Shown in pieces: positions 2,217-63,066 of a stretch of 64,000 bases of DNA. Every line of letters begins with the position of its first letter. The first letter of the stretch is position 1. The translations under genes were made by a program, and so were the position numbers. The stretch spans positions 1 through 64,000 of the forward strand of contig JABRVX010000059.1 of NCBI GenBank assembly GCA_039961735.1. Direction: 5' to 3'. Under the pieces are notes generated by a model. It made no database searches. It had not been told where the DNA came from and saw only the letters and a list, made by a program, of their open reading frames with translations. Origin of the DNA: Fimbriimonadia bacterium. GTDB taxonomy: Bacteria; Armatimonadota; Fimbriimonadia; Fimbriimonadales; JABRVX01.

Positions 2217-3155
2217 ATGCGTTGGTTGGCTGCAGTTTTGGTTTGCGCAGGGCTTGTGACGGCAGGTCACTCGCAGCAACCCGGTACAGATTACAGGTTC
2301 CAGGACTATGACCAGCTCTTCGTGTCGTTGGCTCAGGAGCCGGAGCGAAACATCCGGGCCACCGTAGGGGGGGACGGTTACATCGATTACCCATACATCG
2401 GCCGGGTGCTGGTGCGCGGGCGAACCGTGGCCGAGGTCCAAGAGGAGATCGTCAGCAGGCTGAAGGCCGGCGGGTATTTCGTGGCTCCCGACGTCAGCAT
2501 CACGATAGAGGTGTTCCGCAAACCGCTGGCTACGGTGGTCGGGCAGGACACTGTGCAGCGACCGAACGCGTACGAATTCCGGCCTGGTCAGCGTCTGCGC
2601 GACCTCATCGGAATGGCCGGCGGCCCCATCTATGGCGCAGCGGACACCAGGCGAGCCGTTCTTCAGCGTAAGGACAGCAACGAGCGTATTCCTGTGAACC
2701 TGCGGTTCCTTCTGCAGGACGTTCGTGACGACCAGAACTACGAGTTGAAGGACGGTGACGTTCTCACAGTTCCGCGCGACGAGCAGAACTTCATCACCGT
2801 CATCGGCGAAGTGAACAACCCAGGACCCCAGGTGTACCGCGAAGGGATGAGAGTGACCGACGCGATTGCCGCAGCACGGGGCGGCATTCCCGAACGAGGC
2901 CGGCTCAGCGCGATAACCCTGCTTAGGAAAGACCCGTACGACCCCGCCAAGGTCACTCAGATACCCGTGAACCTGTTCGAGGCGATCAAGGATATCAACA
3001 AGGACCTCGTGTTGCAGAAGACGGACACGCTGGTCGTGCCGCGAACGAACAACATAGACTTGCGCAACGTTCGGGACCTCGCGAATGCGATTTATATCAT
3101 CACCATCACGCTTCGGAATCGGCCATTCGACGCCGTGACCGACGCTCTGCGATAG
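2217..3155 (+). CDS. Polysaccharide export protein, Wza-like (SLBB domains)
   Basis: Signal peptide MRWLAAVLVCAGLVTAGHS. Repeated soluble-ligand-binding beta-grasp-like segments (GDVLTVP, FITVIGEVNNPG). GGAGG 5 nt upstream of ATG 2217; alternative in-frame ATG at 2205. Confidence 0.7.
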   Translation: MRWLAAVLVCAGLVTAGHSQQPGTDYRFQDYDQLFVSLAQEPERNIRATVGGDGYIDYPYIGRVLVRGRTVAEVQEEIVSRLKAGGYFVAPDVSITIEVFRKPLATVVGQDTVQRPNAYEFRPGQRLRDLIGMAGGPIYGAADTRRAVLQRKDSNERIPVNLRFLLQDVRDDQNYELKDGDVLTVPRDEQNFITVIGEVNNPGPQVYREGMRVTDAIAAARGGIPERGRLSAITLLRKDPYDPAKVTQIPVNLFEAIKDINKDLVLQKTDTLVVPRTNNIDLRNVRDLANAIYIITITLRNRPFDAVTDALR

Positions 3156-3175
3156 GTTAGGTAGGGGGCGGCTCA

Positions 3176-5413
3176 GTGCAAAGCGGAATTCTTCAGTTCC
3201 TGGCGCCGGTTCGGCGCCGATGGTGGCTAGTGGCCATTATCGTCATCCCCATCTGCTTGATCACAGCGGCAATCTCCATTTTCTCGCCCACGATGTACGA
3301 CGGTTTCGTGACGATCACCGAGAAGCGCGTGGACCCACGCACGAACGTCGAGATCTATCCCACCATGGGCATCCAGACTGTGGACGTGGAGACGAGGCTG
3401 AACAACCTCATCAACACGATCACGAGCTGGACGGTGTTGCAAAAGACGTTCCTGGACCTTGTACAAACTGGCGAGTGGAAGCCCAAAGCCAATCCTTCAG
3501 CTGGAACGAAACAGTTCAACGACGCGATCACGGAGTTCACCTCTTCAGTGGACATCGAGCCAGTCCGCGGCTCCGAGTTGATCCGAATCCACTTCAAGGC
3601 TGATTCGCAGGAGGCCGCAATGGCGGGGATCAGCCGGCTCTACACGAACTTCCGTGACCACTACATCGAGCTGAACAGTGCCGCGGGCCTGAGAGAGCGC
3701 GAGTTTATCGAGGCGATGCTCGCCAAGGCGAGACAGGACTTTGCCGACGTCGTGGAGCGGAGGAAGAAGTACATCGCGGAGAATGAAGCTGTTGCACTCC
3801 AGGCTTCGACCTCCAGCCTGGTGAACCTTCGCGGGGAGACGCTTTCACAGATGAATCAGGCGGAGCGGGACCTCGCGATGTCCCAACGCTCGCAGGCCGT
3901 CTACCAGGCCGTGAAGGCCGAAAACCAGAAGCAGCCCCTCATCCCGACCGCCACGGCCCAGGCGATGAACCCGGTGTACGACCAGATCAAGCGCCAACTT
4001 GCGTCCGTTGAGGCAGAGTTATCGTCGCGCCTCCAGACGTATGGTCCCAACCACCCCCGCATGCGCGAGTTGGCACAGCAGAAGCAGGCTCTTATGGAAA
4101 AGGAAGCGGAGCTACTTCGAGCGAAGGAGGCTTACCTTCTGTCCGGCAAGTCCGAGACTCGTAGCTCCGAGTTGACGGAGGCGGAGCGAAACGTCAACCT
4201 GACCGAAGCGAACATAGTTGCCGCGAGGGCTAGGAAGGCGGTCCTCAACGTGCAGCTGGAGGACATCGAGCAGAAGCTGCAGCAGGTGCCTGAGAAGGAG
4301 CGGGGTCTGGCCCTGATCGAGGCGGAGTACGTCTCGCGACAGCGCGACCTCGATTTGCTTCAGACACGACTTACCGAAGCGAAGATCAAAGAAGAGGATG
4401 CGAAGAACGTACGCCTTACGATGGTGGACGACGCGTTCGTCCGGGTTATCCCGAAAAAGACCCTAATCAAGCTCGCGATCGCCTTCGGCCTCAGCTTCGC
4501 GCTCTCCGTGGGTTTGGTGCTGGTTCTCGGCCAGTTCGATGCCGGAGCGTACAGTCCGATGCAGGCGGAGAACGCGCTGGGCTACCCGGTCATCGGGTCG
4601 CTTCCGCGTACTCGCCAGGCTCAGCTTCCGAAGACGACCGAGACGGCGTCACCGCTCGCCTCTTCGTTCCAGGTGCTTTCCACCAACATCGTGGAGATGC
4701 GGAACCGGTTGCAGGGTCCGGCCATCGTGGTAGCGAGTGCCGAGCCGAACGTCGGGCGCAGTTCGGTGGCTGCCAACCTGGCGGTGAGCCTGGCCAGGGA
4801 CGGCTCACGCGTCGTGCTGGTGGATGGAGACATGCGAGAGCCGTCACTTCACCGCCACTTCGACGTCGAGAACCGCAGTGGGTTGGCGGAGATTCTGGCC
4901 GGCACGGCGGCCATAGAGGATGTGTGCATGCCGACACCGGTGGACGGGTTGTTGCTGATCACTGCTGGCAAGCCGCCTGCTAACCCGGTCCGACTGCTGC
5001 GTGACGTGGGGTTGGAACGGTTCATCGAGCAGGTATCGAAGGCTGCGGACTTCGTGATATTCGACAGCCCGGCTGGCTCTGCGTTTGCGGATGCTGACGT
5101 GCTTGCCGGAACGCTTCAGAACGTGCTGCTCATCCACGAGGCCGGGTCACCGGCAACGATCAGCGAGGCGGAGTTCCACAAGCGGCTCGAGCGTCTGGGC
5201 ATCAACATTATCGGCGTTGCGTTGAACAAGGTCCGACCCGAGGACTGCTCTGGCTACATCACCTTCCGGCGAGCTTACGAGGCCTCGCTGATGGCGCGCG
5301 AGGTGCCCAGCATACCCACCGAGCGACCCGCACTCGACAAGCCCAAACGGGAGAAAGCCGAGGCACCACGTCGGCCGGATGTCGAGGCGGATGACGAGGA
5401 CGACGAGGTCTAG
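3176..5413 (+). CDS. Wzc/GumC-like polysaccharide co-polymerase with C-terminal BY-kinase-like ATPase domain. Atypical: Walker A Lys is Arg and there is no C-terminal Tyr cluster.
   Basis: N-terminal TM, long coiled-coil periplasmic region, second TM, then VVASAEPNVGRSSVAANLA (Walker A-like with GRS instead of GKS), VLVDGDMREPS (Walker A prime) and VIFDSPAG (Walker B). Acidic C-terminal tail DVEADDEDDEV. GTG start with AGGGGG RBS. Confidence 0.75.
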   Translation: MQSGILQFLAPVRRRWWLVAIIVIPICLITAAISIFSPTMYDGFVTITEKRVDPRTNVEIYPTMGIQTVDVETRLNNLINTITSWTVLQKTFLDLVQTGEWKPKANPSAGTKQFNDAITEFTSSVDIEPVRGSELIRIHFKADSQEAAMAGISRLYTNFRDHYIELNSAAGLREREFIEAMLAKARQDFADVVERRKKYIAENEAVALQASTSSLVNLRGETLSQMNQAERDLAMSQRSQAVYQAVKAENQKQPLIPTATAQAMNPVYDQIKRQLASVEAELSSRLQTYGPNHPRMRELAQQKQALMEKEAELLRAKEAYLLSGKSETRSSELTEAERNVNLTEANIVAARARKAVLNVQLEDIEQKLQQVPEKERGLALIEAEYVSRQRDLDLLQTRLTEAKIKEEDAKNVRLTMVDDAFVRVIPKKTLIKLAIAFGLSFALSVGLVLVLGQFDAGAYSPMQAENALGYPVIGSLPRTRQAQLPKTTETASPLASSFQVLSTNIVEMRNRLQGPAIVVASAEPNVGRSSVAANLAVSLARDGSRVVLVDGDMREPSLHRHFDVENRSGLAEILAGTAAIEDVCMPTPVDGLLLITAGKPPANPVRLLRDVGLERFIEQVSKAADFVIFDSPAGSAFADADVLAGTLQNVLLIHEAGSPATISEAEFHKRLERLGINIIGVALNKVRPEDCSGYITFRRAYEASLMAREVPSIPTERPALDKPKREKAEAPRRPDVEADDEDDEV

Positions 5414-5457
5414 TTGGTTGGGTGGCGCCGCGACCGACGCGGCGCCACCCCTTATGC

Positions 5458-15917: not shown

Positions 15918-15955
15918 TGGTCACGCCGTGCCTCCGCTGCTCCTGCAGCGGAGGC
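15918..15955 (+). terminator. Perfect 16-bp-stem hairpin (gccgtgcctccgctgc/tcc/tgcagcggaggcacggc) followed by a T-containing tract, downstream of the GT39 gene
   Basis: Inverted repeat read directly from sequence. Confidence 0.6.
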
Positions 15956-16124
15956 ACGGCTATTCGTTCTTGCCCCAGGAAGAGGAATCCCGTTCGAGGC
16001 GTATCGTAGGAGCACAGTGCAGTAGGCTGGGCGCAAGAACTTAGCGAATCGCAGCAAACTTTCGCCCGTAATCTTGCGGTGAAGGCTCGGATGTGATAGT
16101 ATTTGTCTACTGTTGAGGATACTG

Positions 16125-25844: not shown

Positions 25845-25919
25845 GCTGACGAGCCGTAAGTAGTAGACGTCGTTTTGCACGGGTTCGCCGCAGAGAGGCG
25901 GCGGAAGGAGGAAACAGAA

Positions 25920-27500
25920 GTGGAGTGGTTCGCATCGTTGCCGGTTCTGATGAAGTGGGTGGTGGGTGGCGGAGTCGCTTTCGTCTTCCTGTTCGTCACC
26001 TACTTCGTCGCAAACATCATGCTGTGGCGGAAGGTCGGTCCGAACGAGGTGCTGATCATCTCCGGATTCCGAGGCGAGTTCGCCCAAGACCCTCGAACGG
26101 GTGAGCGGAGACGGCTGGGTTACAAGATCGTACGCGGCGGCGGCAAGATGGTGTTGCCGATACTGGAACGCGCCGACATCATGTCGCTCGAGCTGATGAC
26201 CCTCGACGTGGAATCCAGCGAATTCTACACCAAGCAGGGAGTGCCGATTCAGGTGGACGGCGTGGCGCAGATCAAGGTACGCGGCGACGACGTGTCCATC
26301 CGCACCGCTGCCGAACAGTTCCTGTCGAAGAACCAGAGCGACATACGGTTCATCGCCCACCAGACAGTGGCCGGCCACTTGCGGGCGATTCTGTCCACCA
26401 TGTCGGTGGAGGAGATATACACGGAGCACGAGGCCTTCGCGCAGAAGGTACAAGAGGTTGCCGCACGCGACCTGCAACATATGGGCATGGAGGTTATCAG
26501 CTTCACGATTCGCTCCATCCGCGACTCGCAAGGCTACCTCGATGCACTTGGTAAGCCTCGCATCGCTGCCGTGAAGCGTGACGCAGCCATAGCAGAAGCT
26601 GAAGCGAGCAGAGATGCCGCCATCCGTTCCGCACAGGCGCGACAGGAAGCCGAGACCGCTCGTCTCGCTGCCGAGACCAAGGTGGCGGAATCCGAGCGTG
26701 ACTTTAAGGTGAAGCAGCAGGAGTTCGCACGTGCCGTCAACCTGGAGAAGGCGAATGCTGACCTCGCCTACGACCTGCAGCGGTTCAAGACCGCGCAGCA
26801 GGTGAAGCAGGAGGAAGTGCAGGTCAGCATCGTGGAGAAGCAGAAGCAAGTCGAGCTTCAGCAGGAGGAGATCCGGCGCAAGGAACTGGAGCTGGAGGCG
26901 CTGGTCGAGAAGCCTGCGATTGCAGAGCGCCAGCGCATCGAGCAGCTTGCAAGCGCCGAGCAGTACCGGCTGAAGACTACCGCGGAAGGCCAAGCGGAGG
27001 CGACGAAGCTGGCCGGAACGGCCGAGGCCGAGGCCAACCGTCAGCGCGGCCTCGCCCAGGCCGACGTCGTGAAGGCTCAGGGACTTGCCGAGGCGGAGAT
27101 GATCCGCGCCAAGGGCCTTGCCGAAGCGGACGCGGTGAAGGCCAAGGGAATCGCGGAAGCCGAGGCGATGGATCGCCAAGCGGCAGCATTCCGCCAGTAC
27201 AACGAGGCCGCAGTCGCCAGCATGTTCATCGAAAAGCTGCCGGAGATCGCACAAGCGGTCGCCGCGCCGCTGAGCAAGGTGGACAAGATCGTGCTGGTGG
27301 GAGGTGGAAGCGATGGCGTGGGCGCCAGCCGAATCACCTCCGAGGTGACACAAATAATGGCGCAGGTGCCGCCTGTGCTAGAAGCCATGACAGGAGTGAA
27401 GCTGGGTGAGCTGATCCAGAAGGCACCTAAACTGGGCGAGAGCGCGAATACCACTCGGCATGCATCACCACAGCAGACGGATGCGTCGCCAGCGGAGTAG
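25920..27500 (+). CDS. Flotillin/SPFH (band 7) family protein, YqiK/FloT-like
   Basis: N-terminal TM, SPFH domain, long Ala/Glu-rich coiled-coil repeats (EAEA...), C-terminal flotillin-like tail. GTG start 25920 with AAGGAGG 9 nt upstream. Confidence 0.85.
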   Translation: MEWFASLPVLMKWVVGGGVAFVFLFVTYFVANIMLWRKVGPNEVLIISGFRGEFAQDPRTGERRRLGYKIVRGGGKMVLPILERADIMSLELMTLDVESSEFYTKQGVPIQVDGVAQIKVRGDDVSIRTAAEQFLSKNQSDIRFIAHQTVAGHLRAILSTMSVEEIYTEHEAFAQKVQEVAARDLQHMGMEVISFTIRSIRDSQGYLDALGKPRIAAVKRDAAIAEAEASRDAAIRSAQARQEAETARLAAETKVAESERDFKVKQQEFARAVNLEKANADLAYDLQRFKTAQQVKQEEVQVSIVEKQKQVELQQEEIRRKELELEALVEKPAIAERQRIEQLASAEQYRLKTTAEGQAEATKLAGTAEAEANRQRGLAQADVVKAQGLAEAEMIRAKGLAEADAVKAKGIAEAEAMDRQAAAFRQYNEAAVASMFIEKLPEIAQAVAAPLSKVDKIVLVGGGSDGVGASRITSEVTQIMAQVPPVLEAMTGVKLGELIQKAPKLGESANTTRHASPQQTDASPAE

Positions 27501-28081
27501 CTTGTTCCGACCTACTAGTGCGGCCTGCAACTGCAGCAGCCTGCCCTCGGCACGCGCATGCCCGAACAGCGCTGGCAAGGGAAGCCACACGTCGATACGG
27601 GAGAAGACGGTCCCGCGACGGATGCCCGAGGTCACTGGCCAATCCACCTCCGCGCCCTCACGGCGTCGGGGGAGAGATCCTCGGACCTGAAGTGCGGGGT
27701 CCCATAGTCGGCAACCCGCCGCGAGGCACGACCGTACTAGTCGGGGGAGTCTAAGTGCAGCCCAGATTCGGCCGTTTTGGGCCGCTCGGGCGGGCGATTG
27801 TCGTTGCGGGACTCTCGAGGCCGATCCGTCTTAGGTTCAAACCGCAGTGAGAGTCCCGCAAAATCGGCCGAAAAACATTATTTTTGTTGCAATGCGACTG
27901 CCCGATTGGGACCCTTCTCGGTGGAGACGAGGTCCGCAGGGGGAGGAGCTAGGGGTGCTGAGGGTGCCGAAACGTAAGCGTCGAACCGTTTTTTGCCTGA
28001 GTGTGCTTAGTGATTTAGACACCTTTGCGCGACTCTCCCCCTTTTTGAGGCCTTCCAGAGAGTCCCGCATAGGTTCAAAGG

Positions 28082-28111
28082 TTGACAGATCGCCAAATCG
28101 GGTGATAGAAT
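28082..28111 (+). promoter_or_regulatory. Leader promoter TTGACA-18bp-TAGAAT about 26 bp upstream of the first CRISPR repeat
   Basis: Read directly. Sits in an AT-richer leader (27860-28137) that also carries internal repeats (gagagtcccgca and taggttcaaa, each twice). Confidence 0.5.
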
Positions 28112-28137
28112 TGAACCTGGAGAGGGCCGAGGGAAGG

Positions 28138-28406
28138 GTCGCAGTGACCGCCCCGCTAACAAGGGGACTGAAACCTATTACCGGCTCTGTTACGGCGGCT
28201 CTTTTTTTATCGGTCGCAGTGACCGCCCCGCTAACAAGGGGACTGAAACCCGGAGGCGGGGCGTGGCGAAGCTACGCAGCTGGGGACCTCAGCGTCGCAG
28301 TGACCGCCCCGCTAACAAGGGGACTGAAACGATGACTGGTACCAGTTACCAGTCAACCCGCAAGTCCGCGTCGCAGTGACCGCCCCGCTAACAAGGGGAC
28401 TGAAAC
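28138..28406 (+). CRISPR. CRISPR-like array of 4 identical 37-bp repeats (GTCGCAGTGACCGCCCCGCTAACAAGGGGACTGAAAC) with 3 unique spacers of 38, 44 and 39 bp
   Basis: Repeats at 28138-28174, 28213-28249, 28294-28330 and 28370-28406. The repeat has an internal stem (CCCCG...GGGG) and a 3' GAAAC. No cas gene recognisable anywhere in the window. Confidence 0.85.
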
Positions 28407-28483
28407 GACTTCGGCGGCGGGGGCGAGCGCCGAGGAATGTACGGCCCGTTCCGATCGCTCGCCCCCGCCGCCGAAGTCGTTTC
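28402..28483. terminator. Perfect 28-bp-stem palindrome (gaaacgacttcggcggcgggggcgagcg ... cgctcgcccccgccgccgaagtcgtttc) with a 26-nt loop. Begins inside the last CRISPR repeat.
   Basis: Inverted repeat read directly. The 3' GAAAC of repeat 4 forms the base of the stem. Could be an array terminator, a palindromic spacer, or a remnant. Confidence 0.6.
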
Positions 28484-28696
28484 AACACACAGTTCCCGAC
28501 GCACACGCCGCCTTCCGTACCGAGCCGGTGTCGGCCGAAAAGTACGCAGTGGTGGCAAGTCAGCGTGACGTGCTGGGCCCAGAAGTAACAGACCCCGCGA
28601 TGGGTTCGAGCAATGGGTGATTAGCTGGTGCTCGAACGCCGCTCGAGCACAGTGCACAAAGCAACAGCACGACCAGGGACCCCGGCCGATACGGCG

Positions 28697-30733
28697 CTAC
28701 ACGCGCTCTGGTGCAACATGCATACGGAAGTCGAGGTGGGGCGGGGGCGGGTGATCGCGTCGAACCTGAGCCCGTTCCTTCTCGGATAGCGGTCGTCCGA
28801 CGAGGCTCCCCGCGCGGCGCTCCTGAAGCTCGAACCAGAGGTCGGTAAGGATCGAGTCGCCCTCTCTCAGGTCCCCGAGATCCATCTCGCCAGCCAGCGC
28901 TTCCTCCGCTGCGTCGAGGTTGCCCAGTGCGAGAGCAGCCTTCGCCTCGCTCACTCGAATCCGTCCGTGGCTGCGCATCGGCAACTCCAAAGACGTTGCA
29001 AATCGCAGTGCGTCCTTCGGCCTGTCCGCCACTAACAGTGCGTCGCAGCACTCGATGGCTAGCGGAGTTAAGTTAGGTAACAACTCCACGGCCTGCAGCA
29101 TCATATCCGCGCCCTTATCGAGTTCGCCGCGACGTAGTAACAGCTTCGCCAGACACCTCAGTGCCCACCCGTTGGGGTGACGCGCAGCAGATGTTTGCCA
29201 TTCTCGTTCTGCATCGCCCATTTGCCCTGCATGATAGTGCATGAGCCCGAGGTGCCAGCGTGACGCCCAGTGATCACCACACCCTCTACCGAGCGATTGC
29301 GCCAGTAGCTGCATCCACTCCTCTTGCACCATAAATGCGCCGGGGCCATCGCTCGGGTCTGGTTCGGCAAGTGCGCCTTCCTGCAGCAGTCGCACCCACG
29401 GCTGTTGCTCATCCGTAAGCGACGACTGAGGGAACGGGAGAGCGTTCACTTGGGAGTGCGCGAGTCTGCTGGCACTCTCTCCAGCAGCCCTCATCTCCTC
29501 CAGTGCACCCCACCCGGACCCCAGATGGAGCAGATCGTGCGGAGCCGCATCCGAGGCCACCAGCGCTTTGTCGTACGCCTGCTGCAAGTAGCTGGCAGGT
29601 GCCAGTGTATCAATCCGGTTCGCCACCTCACGGCGCGCCTGTTGCCAATCCGGGCCATGCGTGGCCTTCGTGTCGCATTGCAGGGGACCGTACACCTCCA
29701 GCCACGACCAATCGGCCGAAGCAGGCATCGGGATACACTCGTACTGCGTGCGTGCGAGCCCGGCCTGGATCTCCACATATGCTTGTCCCGGTTGCGACAG
29801 GAACTCTTGCCACCGCCTACCTCCCGCACCCATACCCCATACGAACAGCTTGCGGCCCTTCAGACGAGGCGTCGAGGCCTGGAACGTAGCGCTCCCATCT
29901 TCATAGACGGCGGCCACGAACGGTCTCGTCGGCTCGTCCACCACGAAGAAAGCGTCGCTGGCCGAGGGTGCTCGTGTCGGTCGTGTGATGTCGTAGCCGC
30001 CCCACTCCGGCAAGGTCGCCCGCGCCATACGTCCATCGTAGGCCATCTTGTATGCGTAGTTTGCCGGGGTGATGATACGTAGGTCCTGCGTTTCGGTCAC
30101 GGCTGCATTGGACCACCAGTACATCGGTATCTGGATTTCACGCGGGTTGCGAATGCGTACGAACACGTGTAGCAGTGGAGAGGCCGGAGGTAGGCATGTG
30201 TCCAACTGGTAGTACACGCGCCGTATACGGTCCCATTCGTAAAGGCGCAGGATCGGGTAACCCTCTCCTTGTACTCGCGCTGCGAAGAGGGGAGAACACG
30301 TATAAGGGGTATGACCGCGTATGCCGACATTCCACTCGACTCCTCCGCTGAACCATGCGTTGCGTACTGCTAGGTTGGCGGGCTGGAAGACTGGGTTGAC
30401 GTATAGTAGCTCGCGTGCCAGCTGCTTATCGTATAGGGACCAGAGGCGCCCTCCCAGGGTTGGCAGGAACGTTGCGTGCAGCCGCTCGTTTTCCAGCACG
30501 ATGGTGGGTAGCTGCATCGGTCGGCGCTTGCGCGTGTAGCCGTCTTGCAAGCGATGTGGGAGGATGCTCACCTCGACTTCCCATCCCAGGTACCTGCAGT
30601 CTTCCTCGGGAACATCGGGTTCTGCCTCTACCTTCCCGCCGACAGGGTTCACCGTGCCGAGGTCGGGAAGTGGGTTTTCGGGGCCGAGATCGGCACCCAT
30701 TAGCGCCAGCGTGCCTGTGCGCAGTTCAGTCAT
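28697..30733 (-). CDS. Hypothetical large protein with C-terminal TPR-like helical repeats (DUF5107-like)
   Basis: 678 aa. N-terminal beta-rich region and C-terminal TPR-like repeats (LLRRGELDKGADMMLQAVELLPN...). Family call is from memory. Confidence 0.5.
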   Translation of the reverse strand: MTELRTGTLALMGADLGPENPLPDLGTVNPVGGKVEAEPDVPEEDCRYLGWEVEVSILPHRLQDGYTRKRRPMQLPTIVLENERLHATFLPTLGGRLWSLYDKQLARELLYVNPVFQPANLAVRNAWFSGGVEWNVGIRGHTPYTCSPLFAARVQGEGYPILRLYEWDRIRRVYYQLDTCLPPASPLLHVFVRIRNPREIQIPMYWWSNAAVTETQDLRIITPANYAYKMAYDGRMARATLPEWGGYDITRPTRAPSASDAFFVVDEPTRPFVAAVYEDGSATFQASTPRLKGRKLFVWGMGAGGRRWQEFLSQPGQAYVEIQAGLARTQYECIPMPASADWSWLEVYGPLQCDTKATHGPDWQQARREVANRIDTLAPASYLQQAYDKALVASDAAPHDLLHLGSGWGALEEMRAAGESASRLAHSQVNALPFPQSSLTDEQQPWVRLLQEGALAEPDPSDGPGAFMVQEEWMQLLAQSLGRGCGDHWASRWHLGLMHYHAGQMGDAEREWQTSAARHPNGWALRCLAKLLLRRGELDKGADMMLQAVELLPNLTPLAIECCDALLVADRPKDALRFATSLELPMRSHGRIRVSEAKAALALGNLDAAEEALAGEMDLGDLREGDSILTDLWFELQERRAGSLVGRPLSEKERAQVRRDHPPPPHLDFRMHVAPERV

Positions 30734-38533: not shown

Positions 38534-38774
38534 CTACCACGTTGCACGTGGCTGCCTCCCGGCTGTTGTCACCTCACTCGCCGTTCGCAGTATTGCATTA
38601 GGTAGCAGCGCTCTATGCACCATGCTGAGCCTCCTCCCCCGTGTTAGATATCATCTCGGTAGCGATCATTCAGCACAGCAACTCGAATAAGCACATGAAC
38701 ACCCAAACCGTCATGCTGAGCCCCCGACCCCGTGTATTAGCCAACACACCAGCAAAGTTCCGTCATAAAGTTCC

Positions 38775-38984
38775 GTCATGCTGAGCCTGTCGAAGCATGA
38801 CCGCGCCTGATGCGAACGTCGCGGTTTCATGTGGTAGCGAGTGGCTGACGGATGCATGCTTCGACAGGCTCAGCATGACGTTAGCTTCGACAGGCTCAGC
38901 ATGACGTTAGCTTCGACAGGCTCAGCATGACGTTAGCTTCGACAAGCTCAGCATGACGTTAGCTTCGACAGGCTCAGCATGACG
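38775..38984. repeat. Palindromic repeat cluster: one inverted copy gtcatgctgagcctgtcgaagcatgac (38775-38801) followed by about 5 tandem copies of the 26-bp unit ttagcttcgacaggctcagcatgacg (38855-38984). Additional half-site copies gtcatgctgagcc at 38621-38631 and 38710-38722.
   Basis: Read directly. The unit is itself a hairpin (gtcatgct...agcatgac). The region downstream of rpoD is non-coding and lower in GC. Confidence 0.8.
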
Positions 38985-46813: not shown

Positions 46814-46834
46814 CGGGTAACCACCCTCGACCGC

Positions 46835-46867
46835 GTTGCCCTGGAGCAGCCTCTGCTCCAGGGCAAC
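46835..46867. terminator. Bidirectional terminator hairpin (gttgccctggagcag/cct/ctgctccagggcaac) between convergent glnA and the metalloprotease gene
   Basis: Perfect 15-bp stem read directly. Confidence 0.65.
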
Positions 46868-46892
46868 GTCATACGTACGGCACTTGGAGGCT

Positions 46893-50670: not shown

Positions 50671-51537
50671 TCAGACCTCCGGCGCGGCCTCCGACTGCGC
50701 GGCATCCCACTGGGCCGCGTACTCGGGGTCGCGTTTACACAACGGCACGAAGTCGCACCCCAAACACACCGCTTTGAACGCCGGCTTTAGTGCCGCGAAG
50801 TCTGTCTCCAGGATCTCCTCTCCCAACAAACGCAGGCTCTCCTCGAACTGCGCTAACTCCTCATCGGTCAGCCCAACGGTGGCAGATTGGTTGGCCCGCA
50901 GTGCGTGAATCGTCGCGCGCACCGAACGCTCCGGATGAAGCCTGCGCAGAAGCAACTGATAGGCGCACATGGCGAGGTCGTTGCGCACGTCCTCCTCGGT
51001 GACGCTGTCCCGACCGCTTTTGTAGTCCACCACCTCGAGAGCGCCGTCGGGATGCTCGTCCACGCGGTCCACGCGGCCCTGCAGCAGGAAGGGGCCAAGG
51101 TCGAAGCGCAGCATCCGTTCGACGTACACGGGCTTGGCGAGCGTCGGCGCTGCAGCCTGCTTCTCGTAGTAGGCGACAAGCAGTTCGCGACCCATCTCCA
51201 GCCGCCTTGCCGACTCCTCGGGGCTGTCGTATCCCGCTTCGATCCAGCTTTCTTCATAGTCGGCCAGCAGGGTTTCTTTGGGCACCTCGCCAACGCCGCC
51301 CTGTTCGTGAAAGCGCTGCAGCACTTTGTGCAGGGTGGCGCCGAAGCTGAAATAGGGTTTGGCAGTTCGGTACCAACGTCCTCGCGGGTCCACGAAGCTC
51401 CAGCGATACATCACCGGGCAGGCGAGGTAGGTCACGAACTTGGACGGGCTAAGGGTGGGTTTGTCCTTCACGGCGACCTCCGTGATCTCGCCCCGCAGTG
51501 GGCGGTCCAAAAGCATAGGCGAGAGGCCCGACGCCAC
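50671..51537 (-). CDS. PD-(D/E)XK nuclease, Cas4/RecB-like, with a 4-Cys Fe-S cluster signature
   Basis: N-terminal YLACPVMYRW (Cas4-like CP motif), VDYKSG (D-x-K), C-terminal CLGCDFVPLC (Cx2Cx5C). Confidence 0.65.
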   Translation of the reverse strand: MASGLSPMLLDRPLRGEITEVAVKDKPTLSPSKFVTYLACPVMYRWSFVDPRGRWYRTAKPYFSFGATLHKVLQRFHEQGGVGEVPKETLLADYEESWIEAGYDSPEESARRLEMGRELLVAYYEKQAAAPTLAKPVYVERMLRFDLGPFLLQGRVDRVDEHPDGALEVVDYKSGRDSVTEEDVRNDLAMCAYQLLLRRLHPERSVRATIHALRANQSATVGLTDEELAQFEESLRLLGEEILETDFAALKPAFKAVCLGCDFVPLCKRDPEYAAQWDAAQSEAAPEV

Positions 51538-51577
51538 TGTGTCGGGCCTCTCAGTGTGAACGATCCCTACCCCTCTG

Positions 51578-60358: not shown

Positions 60359-61030
60359 ATGGAGAGAACAGAACTCAGCTTGGCCAAGCTCCTCGTGGCG
60401 TGCCTCGCGGCGGCGGCCGCGGCAGGCTGCCGCGACGCGAGCAAGCCCCAGATCATCGGAAGCCTCTCGGACGACCTGTACCCGCTCGGTCAGGGCAACA
60501 AGTGGGTGTACAGCGACCGCTCGCGGTCCGGCGAGATCATGCCTGACAGGATTCGCACGGTCGTGGGCAGGGTCGAGTACGGGGGGAAGATGGTGTGGAA
60601 GCTGGAAGACGTCGGCGAGGACGGCCGCGCGCCATCCGAGTTCGTTGCCTGGACGGACCAAGAGGGACTGTATATCCATCAGTTCGACGGCGTGACCCAC
60701 CGGGACGCTGTGCTACCCGAGCTCCAGTTCCCGCTGTTCAAGGGCAAGAAGTGGGAAACCATGATCAAGACCTACGATGGCGGGCATGTCCGCGATGAGA
60801 AGTGGGTGTACGAAGTGAAGGGCCTCGAGTCCATCGAGACGCCGTCCGGCAAGCACATGGCGATTCGAGTGGACGCGTTCAACTACTATGGCGACAATCT
60901 GGAGAACGCTTTCTACCGCCGCACCTGGTATGCCCCAGGTTTTGGCGTGGTTCGCTATCAGACCGGCATGGGGCCCGAGGCGGACCAGCGGGTGCTGATG
61001 CTGAAGGAGTTTAAGCGCGCGAAGCTATAG
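60359..61030 (+). CDS. Lipoprotein, hypothetical (paralogue family A)
   Basis: Lipobox AAAAAGC. Motifs YPLGQGNKWVY and IETPSGKHMAIRVD. Confidence 0.55.
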   Translation: MERTELSLAKLLVACLAAAAAAGCRDASKPQIIGSLSDDLYPLGQGNKWVYSDRSRSGEIMPDRIRTVVGRVEYGGKMVWKLEDVGEDGRAPSEFVAWTDQEGLYIHQFDGVTHRDAVLPELQFPLFKGKKWETMIKTYDGGHVRDEKWVYEVKGLESIETPSGKHMAIRVDAFNYYGDNLENAFYRRTWYAPGFGVVRYQTGMGPEADQRVLMLKEFKRAKL

Positions 61031-62011
61031 CGGAAGCCTCACCGGCTTTCCAGTCGCTGCCGACTCGTATCCAGCGATGGCCACCTCGGCTGCCTTAAAG
61101 CCGTCATGGCCCGAGATAGGCACCGGCTCACCGGTCTCGATGGCCCGCAGGAACTCCTCGATAAGCGGCTCGTCTATATTGCCACCGTAGCTCTGCTGGC
61201 GCGCCCTCATGTCCTTCATGCTGTAAGCCATCACGCCCTGGGCGAACATGTCCATTTCGATGACGCCTTCGCTGCCGACCACGTTCATCGTTACGTCGCC
61301 CCATATCTTGTAGCAAAGCGGGCGTGACCAGCTAGAGTCGACCGTTGCGAACACGCCGTTCTCGAACTCGACGGTCAACATGGCGATGTCCTCGTAGTCT
61401 CCGTGGTACATGTTGTTGCCGGTCTCGGCGTACACGGTGACCACTTCGGACTGCAGCAGCACGCGCAACAGGTCTGCGACGTGGACGGTGTGGTCCATCA
61501 TCGAGCCTCCGCCCGACAGCGATATCACGTTGAACCAGGAGTCGTGTGGCATCATGCCATGGTTGGTAGCGGCGACGGCGTAGACCTGACCGATCTCGCC
61601 GTCTCTCACCCGAGTCAGGGTCCGTTCGAACGAGGGGGTGTATCGGCAAGGGAAGCATGTCATGAGCTGCACTCCCGCCTTCTCGCACGCTTCGATCATG
61701 CGGTGCCCGTCCTCGAGGGTGGTACAGAGGGGTTTCTCGCACGCGACGTGGCAGCCGTGCTGTGCGGCAAGCTCTACGATCTCGCGGTGCTTCACATTCT
61801 CCGCCGCGACGACCACTGCGTCCGCCTCTGAGGCGAGCTTCTCGTAGCTCTCATAGAACGGCACGCCGAACTTGCTGGCGAACCACCTACCGCGTTCTGG
61901 GTCCTCGTCTGCGACTCCCAAGAACTCGGAGCGGGGGTTCTTCAGCAGCGCATCCGCATATCCCATCGAGTGTAGGTGTGCCGTGCTCAGGATTCCCGTT
62001 TTCAGGCTCAT
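61025..62011 (-). CDS. Gfo/Idh/MocA family oxidoreductase
   Basis: N-terminal Rossmann region (GILSTAHLHS...) and the EKP motif (ACEKPLCTT). Confidence 0.75.
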   Translation of the reverse strand: MSLKTGILSTAHLHSMGYADALLKNPRSEFLGVADEDPERGRWFASKFGVPFYESYEKLASEADAVVVAAENVKHREIVELAAQHGCHVACEKPLCTTLEDGHRMIEACEKAGVQLMTCFPCRYTPSFERTLTRVRDGEIGQVYAVAATNHGMMPHDSWFNVISLSGGGSMMDHTVHVADLLRVLLQSEVVTVYAETGNNMYHGDYEDIAMLTVEFENGVFATVDSSWSRPLCYKIWGDVTMNVVGSEGVIEMDMFAQGVMAYSMKDMRARQQSYGGNIDEPLIEEFLRAIETGEPVPISGHDGFKAAEVAIAGYESAATGKPVRLPL

Positions 62012-63003
62012 CGTCCGCCTCCCAGGCTTACCGGCTGGCCGGTGCGGGCGCTGTCGAGCGCCGCCCGAGATATCTCCACTGCTCGCAACCCGTCTTCAGC
62101 CGTGATGTCGGGCTGTTTGCCCGTGGTCACACACTCGACGAAGTGTGCGAGCTCTCGACGGTAGGGGTCGTCGTTGGGCATCAGCGGGCTTTCGCGATGC
62201 GGGGCTACCGGCGCGTCACCTGTCGAACGCTTTGCTACGCTGAAAGTCGGGTTGTTACGCGAGTCGTACTCCAAGAAGCCACCGTCACCCGCAATCTCGA
62301 ACCAGACGCGGAAGCCGCCGGGATCCGCCCAGGTACCTTCCACGTGTGCGATCGCCCCGGAGCGCAACTTCAGCGTTGCCAGGGCGTAATCGCACTGCGG
62401 GATGTTGCGGTGCACCAGAGCCTTTGCGAACACGCGCTCCACCTCACCGAATGTCCAACGCAACCAGTCGAAATCGTGGATTACCAGGTCCAGCAGCACG
62501 CCGCCGCTCTGGCTGTAGTCGCCGAACCAACCGCTGCTCCACTTGGGGAACGGTCCGCCTCGATGAGTGCGGATGGCCGCCGGCGTGCCGACCTCTCCGT
62601 CCCTTACTAGGCGGTGGGCCAACGCGAACTCCGGGAAGAAGCGGAGCACGTGGGCGGGCATGAACACGCGCCCCGCGCGCTCGGCAGCAGCGACAACCTC
62701 CCGACATTCCTCCACCGTGAGGCACATCGGCTTCTCGCAGATGACATGCTTGCCGGCATCCAGCGCCTGAACGGCCAGTTGCCTGTGTGTCGGCGTGGGG
62801 GTGCAGATGTCCACCGCCTGGCAACGCTGGAGCAGTTCTTCGAACGAGCCGACCGGCTCACCGCCATACTCGCTGGAAAAGGGTTGGAGGCGTTCGGGCT
62901 TCAGGTCGTATACTGCTGCCAGTGCAGCACCGGGAACGTTTCGGTAATGGCGAGCGTGGACACGGCCCATGTTGCCGAGGCCCACGATGCCGATGTTCAA
63001 CAT
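62008..63003 (-). CDS. Gfo/Idh/MocA family oxidoreductase
   Basis: MLNIGIVGLGNMG and ICEKPMC motifs. Start ATG 63003, 6 nt after GGAGG. Overlaps the downstream paralogue's start by 4 bp. Confidence 0.75.
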   Translation of the reverse strand: MLNIGIVGLGNMGRVHARHYRNVPGAALAAVYDLKPERLQPFSSEYGGEPVGSFEELLQRCQAVDICTPTPTHRQLAVQALDAGKHVICEKPMCLTVEECREVVAAAERAGRVFMPAHVLRFFPEFALAHRLVRDGEVGTPAAIRTHRGGPFPKWSSGWFGDYSQSGGVLLDLVIHDFDWLRWTFGEVERVFAKALVHRNIPQCDYALATLKLRSGAIAHVEGTWADPGGFRVWFEIAGDGGFLEYDSRNNPTFSVAKRSTGDAPVAPHRESPLMPNDDPYRRELAHFVECVTTGKQPDITAEDGLRAVEISRAALDSARTGQPVSLGGGR

Positions 63004-63066
63004 GGGCATCCTCCGGGTTCGTAGAGGGTCTTGCGGCACGCCGCGGACCCGGAGAGGGGATACGAC

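Follow-up and report, generated by a model that had tools for sequence, protein, structure and literature searches.

At the distal end of a small CRISPR array, the last repeat runs straight into a long perfect inverted repeat, and the question that this locus raises is what such a structure would do at the very place where the array stops. The array lies in a 64,000-nucleotide (nt) stretch of DNA, referred to as the window, from an uncultured Fimbriimonadia bacterium (GenBank assembly GCA_039961735.1, contig JABRVX010000059.1, positions 1 to 64,000 of the forward strand), and it is a single locus; the sequence covered for this organism was the window and short overlapping contigs. The inverted repeat is a real and statistically extreme feature of an ordinary, though orphan, mini-array. 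Its best explanation, to which we give a probability of about 0.45, is a 3′-terminal hairpin of the array transcript with a dual role, which would terminate or insulate transcription and would also lock away the extraneous CRISPR RNA (ecrRNA), the useless CRISPR RNA (crRNA) arising from the last repeat. By analogy, it would work like hairpins already known to suppress ecrRNAs and to end transcripts; the effect is predicted, and no structure of its kind recurred at related array ends.

The element consists of the following parts.

28401..28429, + strand: left arm (TGAAACGACTTCGGCGGCGGGGGCGAGCG), in which TGAAAC, 6 nt from the 3′ end of repeat 4, leads into 23 nt of adjoining trailer (GACTTCGGCGGCGGGGGCGAGCG)
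28430..28455, + strand: 26-nt loop, with an inner helix of 6 base pairs (bp) formed by 28434-28439 with 28447-28452
28456..28484, + strand: right arm, the exact reverse complement of 28401-28429, ending in GTTTCA, the complement of the repeat end

The two arms are complementary at 29/29 positions and lie 26 nt apart, the whole element (28401-28484) measuring 84 nt. A sequence-only reading of the locus had described a perfect 28-bp stem in an 82-bp element (28402-28483) that took in five bases (gaaac) of repeat 4; the inverted repeat, its overlap with the repeat and the 26-nt loop are all as described, but the stem has 29 bp and the overlap comprises the six bases TGAAAC. Among inverted repeats with arms no more than 80 nt apart it is the longest in the 64-kb window, and its stem is 72% G+C. 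Folding of the RNA, a check proposed in that reading, gave -85.6 kcal/mol for positions 28370-28520 (z = -7.8), with 0/200 shuffled sequences as stable; the 84-nt hairpin folded alone gave -73.0 kcal/mol, the fold of the whole pre-crRNA differed likewise from its shuffles (z = -8.7), and minus-strand RNA kept the same helix at 29-30 bp. The loop and the outer flanks of the hairpin had no significant symmetry. In the whole pre-crRNA fold, GGGGAC (28395-28400) pairs with GUUCCC (28492-28497) across a 7-nt bulge; an extension of the palindrome further into the repeat by this pairing was not significant by shuffling (p = 0.22) and was rejected.

Long perfect inverted repeats can have trivial causes, fold-back chimeras in metagenome assemblies among them. 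That the assembly process created this one is unlikely because the identical sequence is present in a second assembly (GCA_964650095.1, contig CAZYQH010000024.1, locus L001), the two assemblies being possibly of one sample, and the structure stands mid-contig. The related idea of an inserted palindromic mobile element, of the REPIN or MITE type, could draw on the presence in the window of another perfect 26-bp inverted repeat within a repeat-element cluster (38774-38880). The arm of the CRISPR hairpin shares no sequence with that element at 38.8 kb, however, and has no third copy in the window with up to 3 mismatches allowed and none in viral contigs, while phage and plasmid collections gave hits at the level of chance; in addition, 6 nt of the left arm are repeat sequence, a match that an independent insert would show at about 1 in 4096. 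An artefact or a mobile element, taken as one reading, is thus scarcely credible. Integron attC sites were considered as well and rejected, the stem being perfect without extrahelical bases and the arm ends not fitting RYYYAAC/GTTRRRY. Comparison of the hairpin with Rfam returned generic microRNA-precursor models alone, far under their thresholds and meaningless.

Exact repeat matching placed the array at 28138-28406 on the + strand, with four 37-nt repeats, all identical, and three spacers; it thus has at least three near-identical direct repeats of 23-50 nt with unique spacers of similar length, as expected of a CRISPR array. Its parts, with the candidate promoter, are listed in order.

28082..28111, + strand: sigma-70-type promoter (TTGACA, 18 nt, TAGAAT, with TG before the -10; 11/12 consensus matches)
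28138..28174, + strand: CRISPR repeat 1 (GTCGCAGTGACCGCCCCGCTAACAAGGGGACTGAAAC; exact match and Rfam CRISPR-DR10)
28175..28212, + strand: spacer 1, 38 nt, unique within the window
28213..28249, + strand: CRISPR repeat 2 (exact match and Rfam CRISPR-DR10)
28250..28293, + strand: spacer 2, 44 nt, unique within the window
28294..28330, + strand: CRISPR repeat 3 (exact match and Rfam CRISPR-DR10)
28331..28369, + strand: spacer 3, 39 nt, holding a 12-nt palindrome (ACTGGTACCAGT) at 28335-28346
28370..28406, + strand: CRISPR repeat 4, terminal, 37/37 identical to the other repeats
28383-28398, + strand: CCCC/GGGG hairpin of repeat 4 (sequence and fold)
28399-28406, + strand: predicted 8-nt tag ACTGAAAC, by comparison with Synechocystis repeats with the same 3′ end (PMC3575380)

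When compared with Rfam CRISPR-DR10, each repeat aligned from end to end, on the + strand, with 36.2 bits (E = 2.7e-6), just short of the gathering score of 39. The spacers have no second occurrence in the window, the 21-nt cores of spacers 1 and 2 had no match in viral contigs (IMG/VR), and comparison of the array region with phages and plasmids gave weak matches, none better than E = 0.1. In spacer 3, the 21-nt core (window 28342-28362) exactly matches positions 2222-2242 of one viral contig (L134, IMGVR_UViG_3300023279_000731), within an open reading frame (ORF) at 2126-2971; just 5 of the other 18 spacer bases agree and the flanks do not match, and the hit is probably a chance match rather than a protospacer. 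The 12-bp palindrome in spacer 3, to which the sequence-only reading had drawn attention, is real but unremarkable, since 11 perfect palindromes of this length were observed in the window against about 16 expected.

That the hairpin is fused to the last repeat was confirmed: repeat 4 is the last of four identical copies. It had also been proposed that the stem could be a palindromic spacer captured beside a decayed fifth repeat, of which gtcgtttcaac, said to follow the stem, would be the remnant. This string does not follow the stem, as GTCGTTTCA is the end of the 3′ arm itself. The 3′ arm does contain GTCG, the first four bases of the repeat, as this reading would have it, but Smith-Waterman alignments of the repeat with 28430-28560, with 28476-28560 and with the reverse complement of 28479-28560, by which a degenerate terminal repeat was sought on both strands, were no better than those of shuffled sequence (p = 0.26-0.65), and ungapped comparison gave about 13/37 matches, which is background for this G+C content. 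The spacer would moreover be 72 nt long, far beyond the 38-44 nt of the array, and a long fourth spacer with a decayed fifth repeat is the least credible of all the readings weighed.

The candidate promoter is the sole promoter-like site on both strands of 27400-28800 (shuffled sequences average 0.2); judged by its consensus match, it would provide the array with a promoter-bearing leader, as it ends about 26 nt ahead of repeat 1, and transcription would be expected to start at about 28118-28120, roughly 20 nt upstream of repeat 1. Nothing resembling a repeat was found upstream of repeat 1. Because this only promoter-like site is on the + strand and upstream of repeat 1, the array is taken to be transcribed from left to right, with repeat 4 at its distal end. 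If the array were instead read on the minus strand, from the side of the convergent DUF5107 gene, the hairpin would become a leader-repeat or guide-trapping hairpin of the kind found in types II-A, II-C and VI-B. Such hairpins are documented to block ecrRNAs (PMC13187072, PMC12080349), and the same helix forms on the minus strand with the repeat directly after it. This reading is nevertheless very unlikely, as no promoter-like site is present on the minus strand of 27400-28800, the + strand carries the GAAAC end within the exact 12-mer that gives the ACUGAAAC tag in Synechocystis, the Rfam CRISPR-DR10 match is on the + strand, a comparable array downstream of csm genes (L004, described below) has the same orientation, and just 6 nt of the repeat are paired, unlike in the leader-repeat hairpins described so far.

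Ahead of the promoter, the leader contains two inverted-repeat modules based on GAGAGTCCCGC. The first (module span 27804-27861) is a perfect 13-bp inverted repeat (27804-27816/27849-27861); the second (module span 28027-28079) has one mismatch (28027-28037/28058-28068) and ends 13 nt ahead of the -35 box. Each module is accompanied by TAGGTTCAAA, at 27832-27841 and 28070-28079, and the two look like duplicate operator copies for a factor that regulates the promoter of the array.

The sequence of the repeat suggests how its transcript would be processed. Its 3′ end is GGGGACTGAAAC, preceded by a short CCCC/GGGG stem-loop, in sequence and in fold, as in repeats of the type III/I-D class. The same 3′ 12-mer and CCCC/GGGG stem-loop are found in Synechocystis CRISPR2 (type III), and CRISPR1 (I-D) is nearly the same; sequencing of Synechocystis RNA revealed a single Cas6-type cleavage that leaves the 8-nt 5′ tag ACUGAAAC (PMC3575380). 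The exact 24-nt core of the window repeat was absent from metagenome and viral collections, and a search of 185,000 species genomes with a loop-degenerate repeat pattern retrieved two Acidobacteriota arrays, both with ordinary ends. One of these (L004) lies directly downstream of cas10/csm1, csm2, csm3, csm4, the gene for a CARF protein and csx3, and its orientation relative to the csm genes agrees with the + strand reading of the window array. In the same Acidobacteriota locus, at 2700-3480 (Terriglobia metagenome-assembled genome, JBEKLY010000203.1), at least two diverged repeat variants are mixed, ...TTCCCCGATGAAGAGGGGACC... and GGTTGAAG..CCGCCCCGACAAAGAGGGGACTGAAAC.

The window repeat is similar, too, to that of Cas13a, whose end is GGGGACTAAAAC; no ORF of at least 900 amino acids is present in the window, hence none long enough for Cas13. 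All the matching systems (Synechocystis, L004 and Cas13a) have a repeat-derived handle followed by the guide, and for this reason the same configuration can reasonably be inferred for the window array from its repeat class. The array thus shares its repeat-then-guide layout with the Cas6-processed type III/I-D arrays of Synechocystis (CRISPR1/2) and with Cas13a arrays, and differs from the former in having no cas neighbours.

With this layout, a crRNA begun in repeat 4 would carry trailer sequence as its guide, and it is this portion that the hairpin takes up. The stem holds 6/8 nt of the predicted tag (ACUGAAAC) and guide positions 1-23 after the last repeat, so that tag and guide are predicted to pair with flanking sequence from outside the array, and the pairing lies at the last repeat, where it would be expected for ecrRNA suppression given the layout inferred from the repeat class. 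At the terminal repeat of the window, the tag with 22 nt of guide has a predicted pairing probability of 0.93, against 0.44-0.54 at its three internal repeats. A structure defining the distal end of the array, as the sequence-only reading had suggested among its options, is compatible with this evidence, the stem covering both tag and guide of the last repeat's RNA.

Several natural solutions to the ecrRNA problem have been described. In type II-C, the means against ecrRNA are terminators placed upstream, hairpins that sequester the guide and mutated repeats (Feussner 2025, PMC12080349), and in type II-A and many type VI subtypes by leader-repeat hairpins (Migur 2026, PMC13187072); Liao 2022, as cited in PMC13187072, is given there as a source on hairpins suppressing extraneous crRNAs. 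In class 1 systems, ecrRNA arises at the last repeat, and mutation of this repeat is the usual remedy (PMC13187072). For Cas12a, the terminal repeat produces an active ecrRNA, and native terminal repeats are usually mutated (PMC6610086). The window hairpin agrees with the ecrRNA-suppressing hairpins of II-A, of VI-B with its related subtypes and of II-C in that flanking sequence pairs with the extra repeat, with its non-immune guide, or with both, and it could, like the II-C hairpin of C. jejuni, be terminator and guide trap at once. It differs in its location, since the described hairpins belong to guide-repeat systems and stand at the repeat that is first or nearest to the promoter, and the window hairpin at the distal repeat of a repeat-guide array; in its length, the II-C helices tested having about 8 bp against 29 perfect bp; and in pairing with no more than 6 nt of the repeat. 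Class 1 and type V-A arrays with degenerate terminal repeats (PMC6610086; PMC12839519) meet the same problem, a useless crRNA from the last repeat, by mutation, whereas repeat 4 of the window is unmutated and any silencing there would be structural.

Based on these comparisons, the proposed mechanism of the terminal hairpin can be outlined in three steps. Briefly, the helix would first end or insulate transcription, in both directions, between the array and the convergent DUF5107 gene, as shorter hairpins lacking a U tract appear to do at other gene ends of the genome. Secondly, an intramolecular duplex of about -73 kcal/mol would lock up tag and guide, and because of this lock the ecrRNA of the unmutated last repeat would be unusable, neither bound through a single-stranded tag nor paired with targets; effector complexes would not be spent on a guide that gives no immunity. 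When the 151 nt are folded locally, repeat 4 keeps its CCCC/GGGG hairpin, which stays free together with the bases immediately ahead of the tag, and therefore the Cas6-type cut that finishes the spacer-3 crRNA would still be possible; the whole pre-crRNA fold predicts instead the outer GGGGAC/GUUCCC helix, a competitor of this Cas6-type hairpin. Thirdly, a perfect duplex of more than about 20 bp is a plausible substrate of RNase III, which could destroy the ecrRNA and set the 3′ end of the precursor.

The same pairing could be given a different purpose, in which the last repeat and its guide act as a crRNA-like regulator comparable to CreA/CreR or a scaRNA, the guide pairing with the right arm in cis or with antisense read-through from the DUF5107 gene, and the matching anti-tag keeping a type III effector silent. 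A complement of the guide with a 6-nt anti-tag (GUUUCA) does lie 26 nt downstream and by symmetry would be present on the antisense RNA too, and co-option of ecrRNAs for regulation has been raised as a possibility (PMC13187072). The guide would, however, be locked in the cis duplex of about -73 kcal/mol and out of the effector's reach; the target overlaps neither a candidate toxin nor a regulated promoter, the flank is repeat sequence and would be treated as self by DNA-targeting systems, and no cas genes were found nearby among the scanned ORFs, all of which makes this reading very unlikely.

The first step of the mechanism concerns the ground between the array and its neighbours, which are the following.

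25875-27500, + strand: flotillin gene, the upstream neighbour of the array
28697..30733, - strand: DUF5107/TPR gene, convergent, with a transcript that would run toward the array

The hairpin sits 212 nt beyond the stop codon of the DUF5107 gene. It is thus a G+C-rich stem at the end of a transcription unit, starting in the last repeat and facing a convergent gene, as expected of a terminator, and the strong array terminator envisaged in the sequence-only reading is plausible by position; a canonical intrinsic terminator it is not, with its 29-bp stem, 26-nt loop and lack of a U tract, where rho-independent terminators have loops of 3-8 nt followed by a U tract. Four other gene ends in the window carry hairpins (5420-5450, 15925-15960, 46834-46868, which lies between convergent genes, and 51521-51552), all perfect over 12-16 bp and G+C-rich, with loops of 3-8 nt and no U tract. 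They suggest, from the sequence, that the terminators of this organism are of a kind lacking a U tract. The CRISPR hairpin shares with such terminators a G+C-rich stem at the end of a unit between convergent units, and shorter equivalents are found beside terminal repeats of other arrays (L026, L047, L100).

These other arrays belonged to a comparison set of 120 metagenomic loci, chosen for having two or more neighbouring repeats that end in GGGGACTGAAAC; the distal ends of these loci were analysed. The longest perfect inverted repeat anchored between -8 and +5 of the repeat end was measured at the 76 terminal junctions with enough trailer; it was 4-13 bp long, compared with 29 bp in the window. 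Inverted repeats of at least 8 bp were present at 6/76 terminal junctions and at 33/1935 internal ones, and the best terminal cases (L026, L047, L100 and L062) look like ordinary short terminators abutting the last repeat, that of L026 overlapping it by 3 nt. For the tag and the first 22 guide bases, the predicted pairing probability had a mean of 0.51 at 77 terminal junctions and of 0.48 at the 1905 internal junctions (p = 0.026, uncorrected). With 0.93, the window exceeded every one of them, the maximum being 0.71 among the terminal and 0.81 among the internal junctions. A hairpin at the array end is thus a known and mildly enriched feature, of which the window hairpin is a lone extreme.

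This isolation bears directly on the origin of the element. The right arm includes the complement of conserved repeat bases, from which we infer that it is the derived arm, copied in inverted form from the place where repeat 4 meets the trailer, and a single template switch during replication could have written it. Template switching generates perfect hairpins in one step (PMC8794818, PMC10710096), and the window element resembles the hairpins so formed in having a perfect inverted copy tens of nt away and a direction of copying that can be deduced; it differs in that the window lacks the ancestral sequence that would prove the event, and template switching is in any case a mode of origin and not a function. 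The hairpin could accordingly be a neutral accident, in which one intrastrand template switch overwrote 29 nt of the trailer so recently that the unselected product has not yet decayed. The perfect 29/29 stem, the loop and outer flanks without significant symmetry, the derived right arm and the want of anything comparable at 76-77 related array ends, with evidence of conservation confined to one species, are all in keeping with this. Set against it are the very specific position of the stem, which starts in the last 8 nt of the sole terminal repeat in 64 kb and coincides with the end of a transcription unit and with the tag and guide of an ecrRNA (an argument made post hoc), the identity of the element in two separate assemblies, possibly of one sample, by which it is no private variant of one assembly, and the expectation of some hairpin here, as at other gene ends of the window. 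On balance, a neutral accident is considered somewhat unlikely, yet it is a strong rival and the main one.

The combined terminator and ecrRNA lock likewise has several points counting against it. Nothing of similar size exists at the 76-77 related array ends, where the excess of terminal pairing is weak, and such a hairpin therefore does not recur as a feature of this class of array. No relative with the same array was recovered through orthologues of the flanking genes, and at a single locus neither conservation nor compensatory change is demonstrable. As a terminator the element departs from the usual form, the loop being 26 nt, ACACACAG following the stem and a terminator scan being silent, and its 29-bp stem far exceeds the 12-16 bp of the window's other gene-end hairpins. 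The scanned ORFs of the window include no cas gene, and a neutral mutation of very recent date would likewise leave a perfect stem.

A more specific proposal is that the hairpin is a selected 'trailer-repeat' lock, a distal mirror of the II-A and VI-B leader-repeat hairpins in which the last repeat is kept perfect for Cas6 while the 5′ tag and the guide are buried and the ecrRNA is possibly handed to RNase III. This proposal is considered unlikely. Were it true, the trailer-repeat lock would constitute a third route of ecrRNA control in repeat-guide arrays (class 1, V-A and VI-A), beside repeat mutation and simple termination.

Recent work argues that no CRISPR array escapes the problem of one 'extra' repeat able to yield a useless guide RNA. 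The papers cited present mutation of the last repeat as the solution for arrays of the repeat-then-guide type, which are the majority. A functional hairpin in the window would extend structural silencing to the distal end of class 1-type arrays, and constructs with multiplexed guides could borrow from it a compact, natural way to end an array. Should it be merely a fresh product of template switching, it would still be a clean case of a long RNA hairpin arising in one step where it could be useful at once. As a single case from one uncultured Fimbriimonadia genome, its present weight is modest.

The surroundings of the array provide little by which to type it. No cas domains were found in Pfam scans of most window ORFs of at least 300 amino acids (the ORFs at 61025-62011 and 62008-63039 and all shorter ones being left out), and none among the Pfam matches stored with the second assembly (L001), which cover 30.7-38.5 kb; the array is flanked by the flotillin and DUF5107/TPR genes rather than by cas genes, and the remaining scanned genes look like housekeeping and envelope genes. 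The array is, on the sequence scanned, an orphan at this locus. Orthologues of the flanking genes were found for DUF5107 (84%, L005) and flotillin (95%, L010) on contigs that stop short of the array, the former belonging to SRR12262943 and the latter to SRR28523964, and relatives at 56-74% traced through the flanking genes are not syntenic.

A small array on a human gut metagenome contig (L051, 12839-13068) has a repeat, GTCGCAGTACCAAAATCCCCGTAAGGGGACTGAAAC, that shares both ends with the window repeat. The surrounding 8 kb or so contain iron/B12 ABC transporter, TonB receptor and radical SAM genes but no cas gene; it is another orphan array of the same repeat class and is of no help for typing. 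Elsewhere in the window, the second perfect inverted repeat, of 26 bp, has its arms at 38774-38799 and 38855-38880, within a cluster (38700-38950) that contains at least three tandem copies of GTTAGCTTCGACAGGCTCAGCATGAC, and it appears to belong to a family of repeat elements whose sequence has no relationship to that of the CRISPR hairpin.

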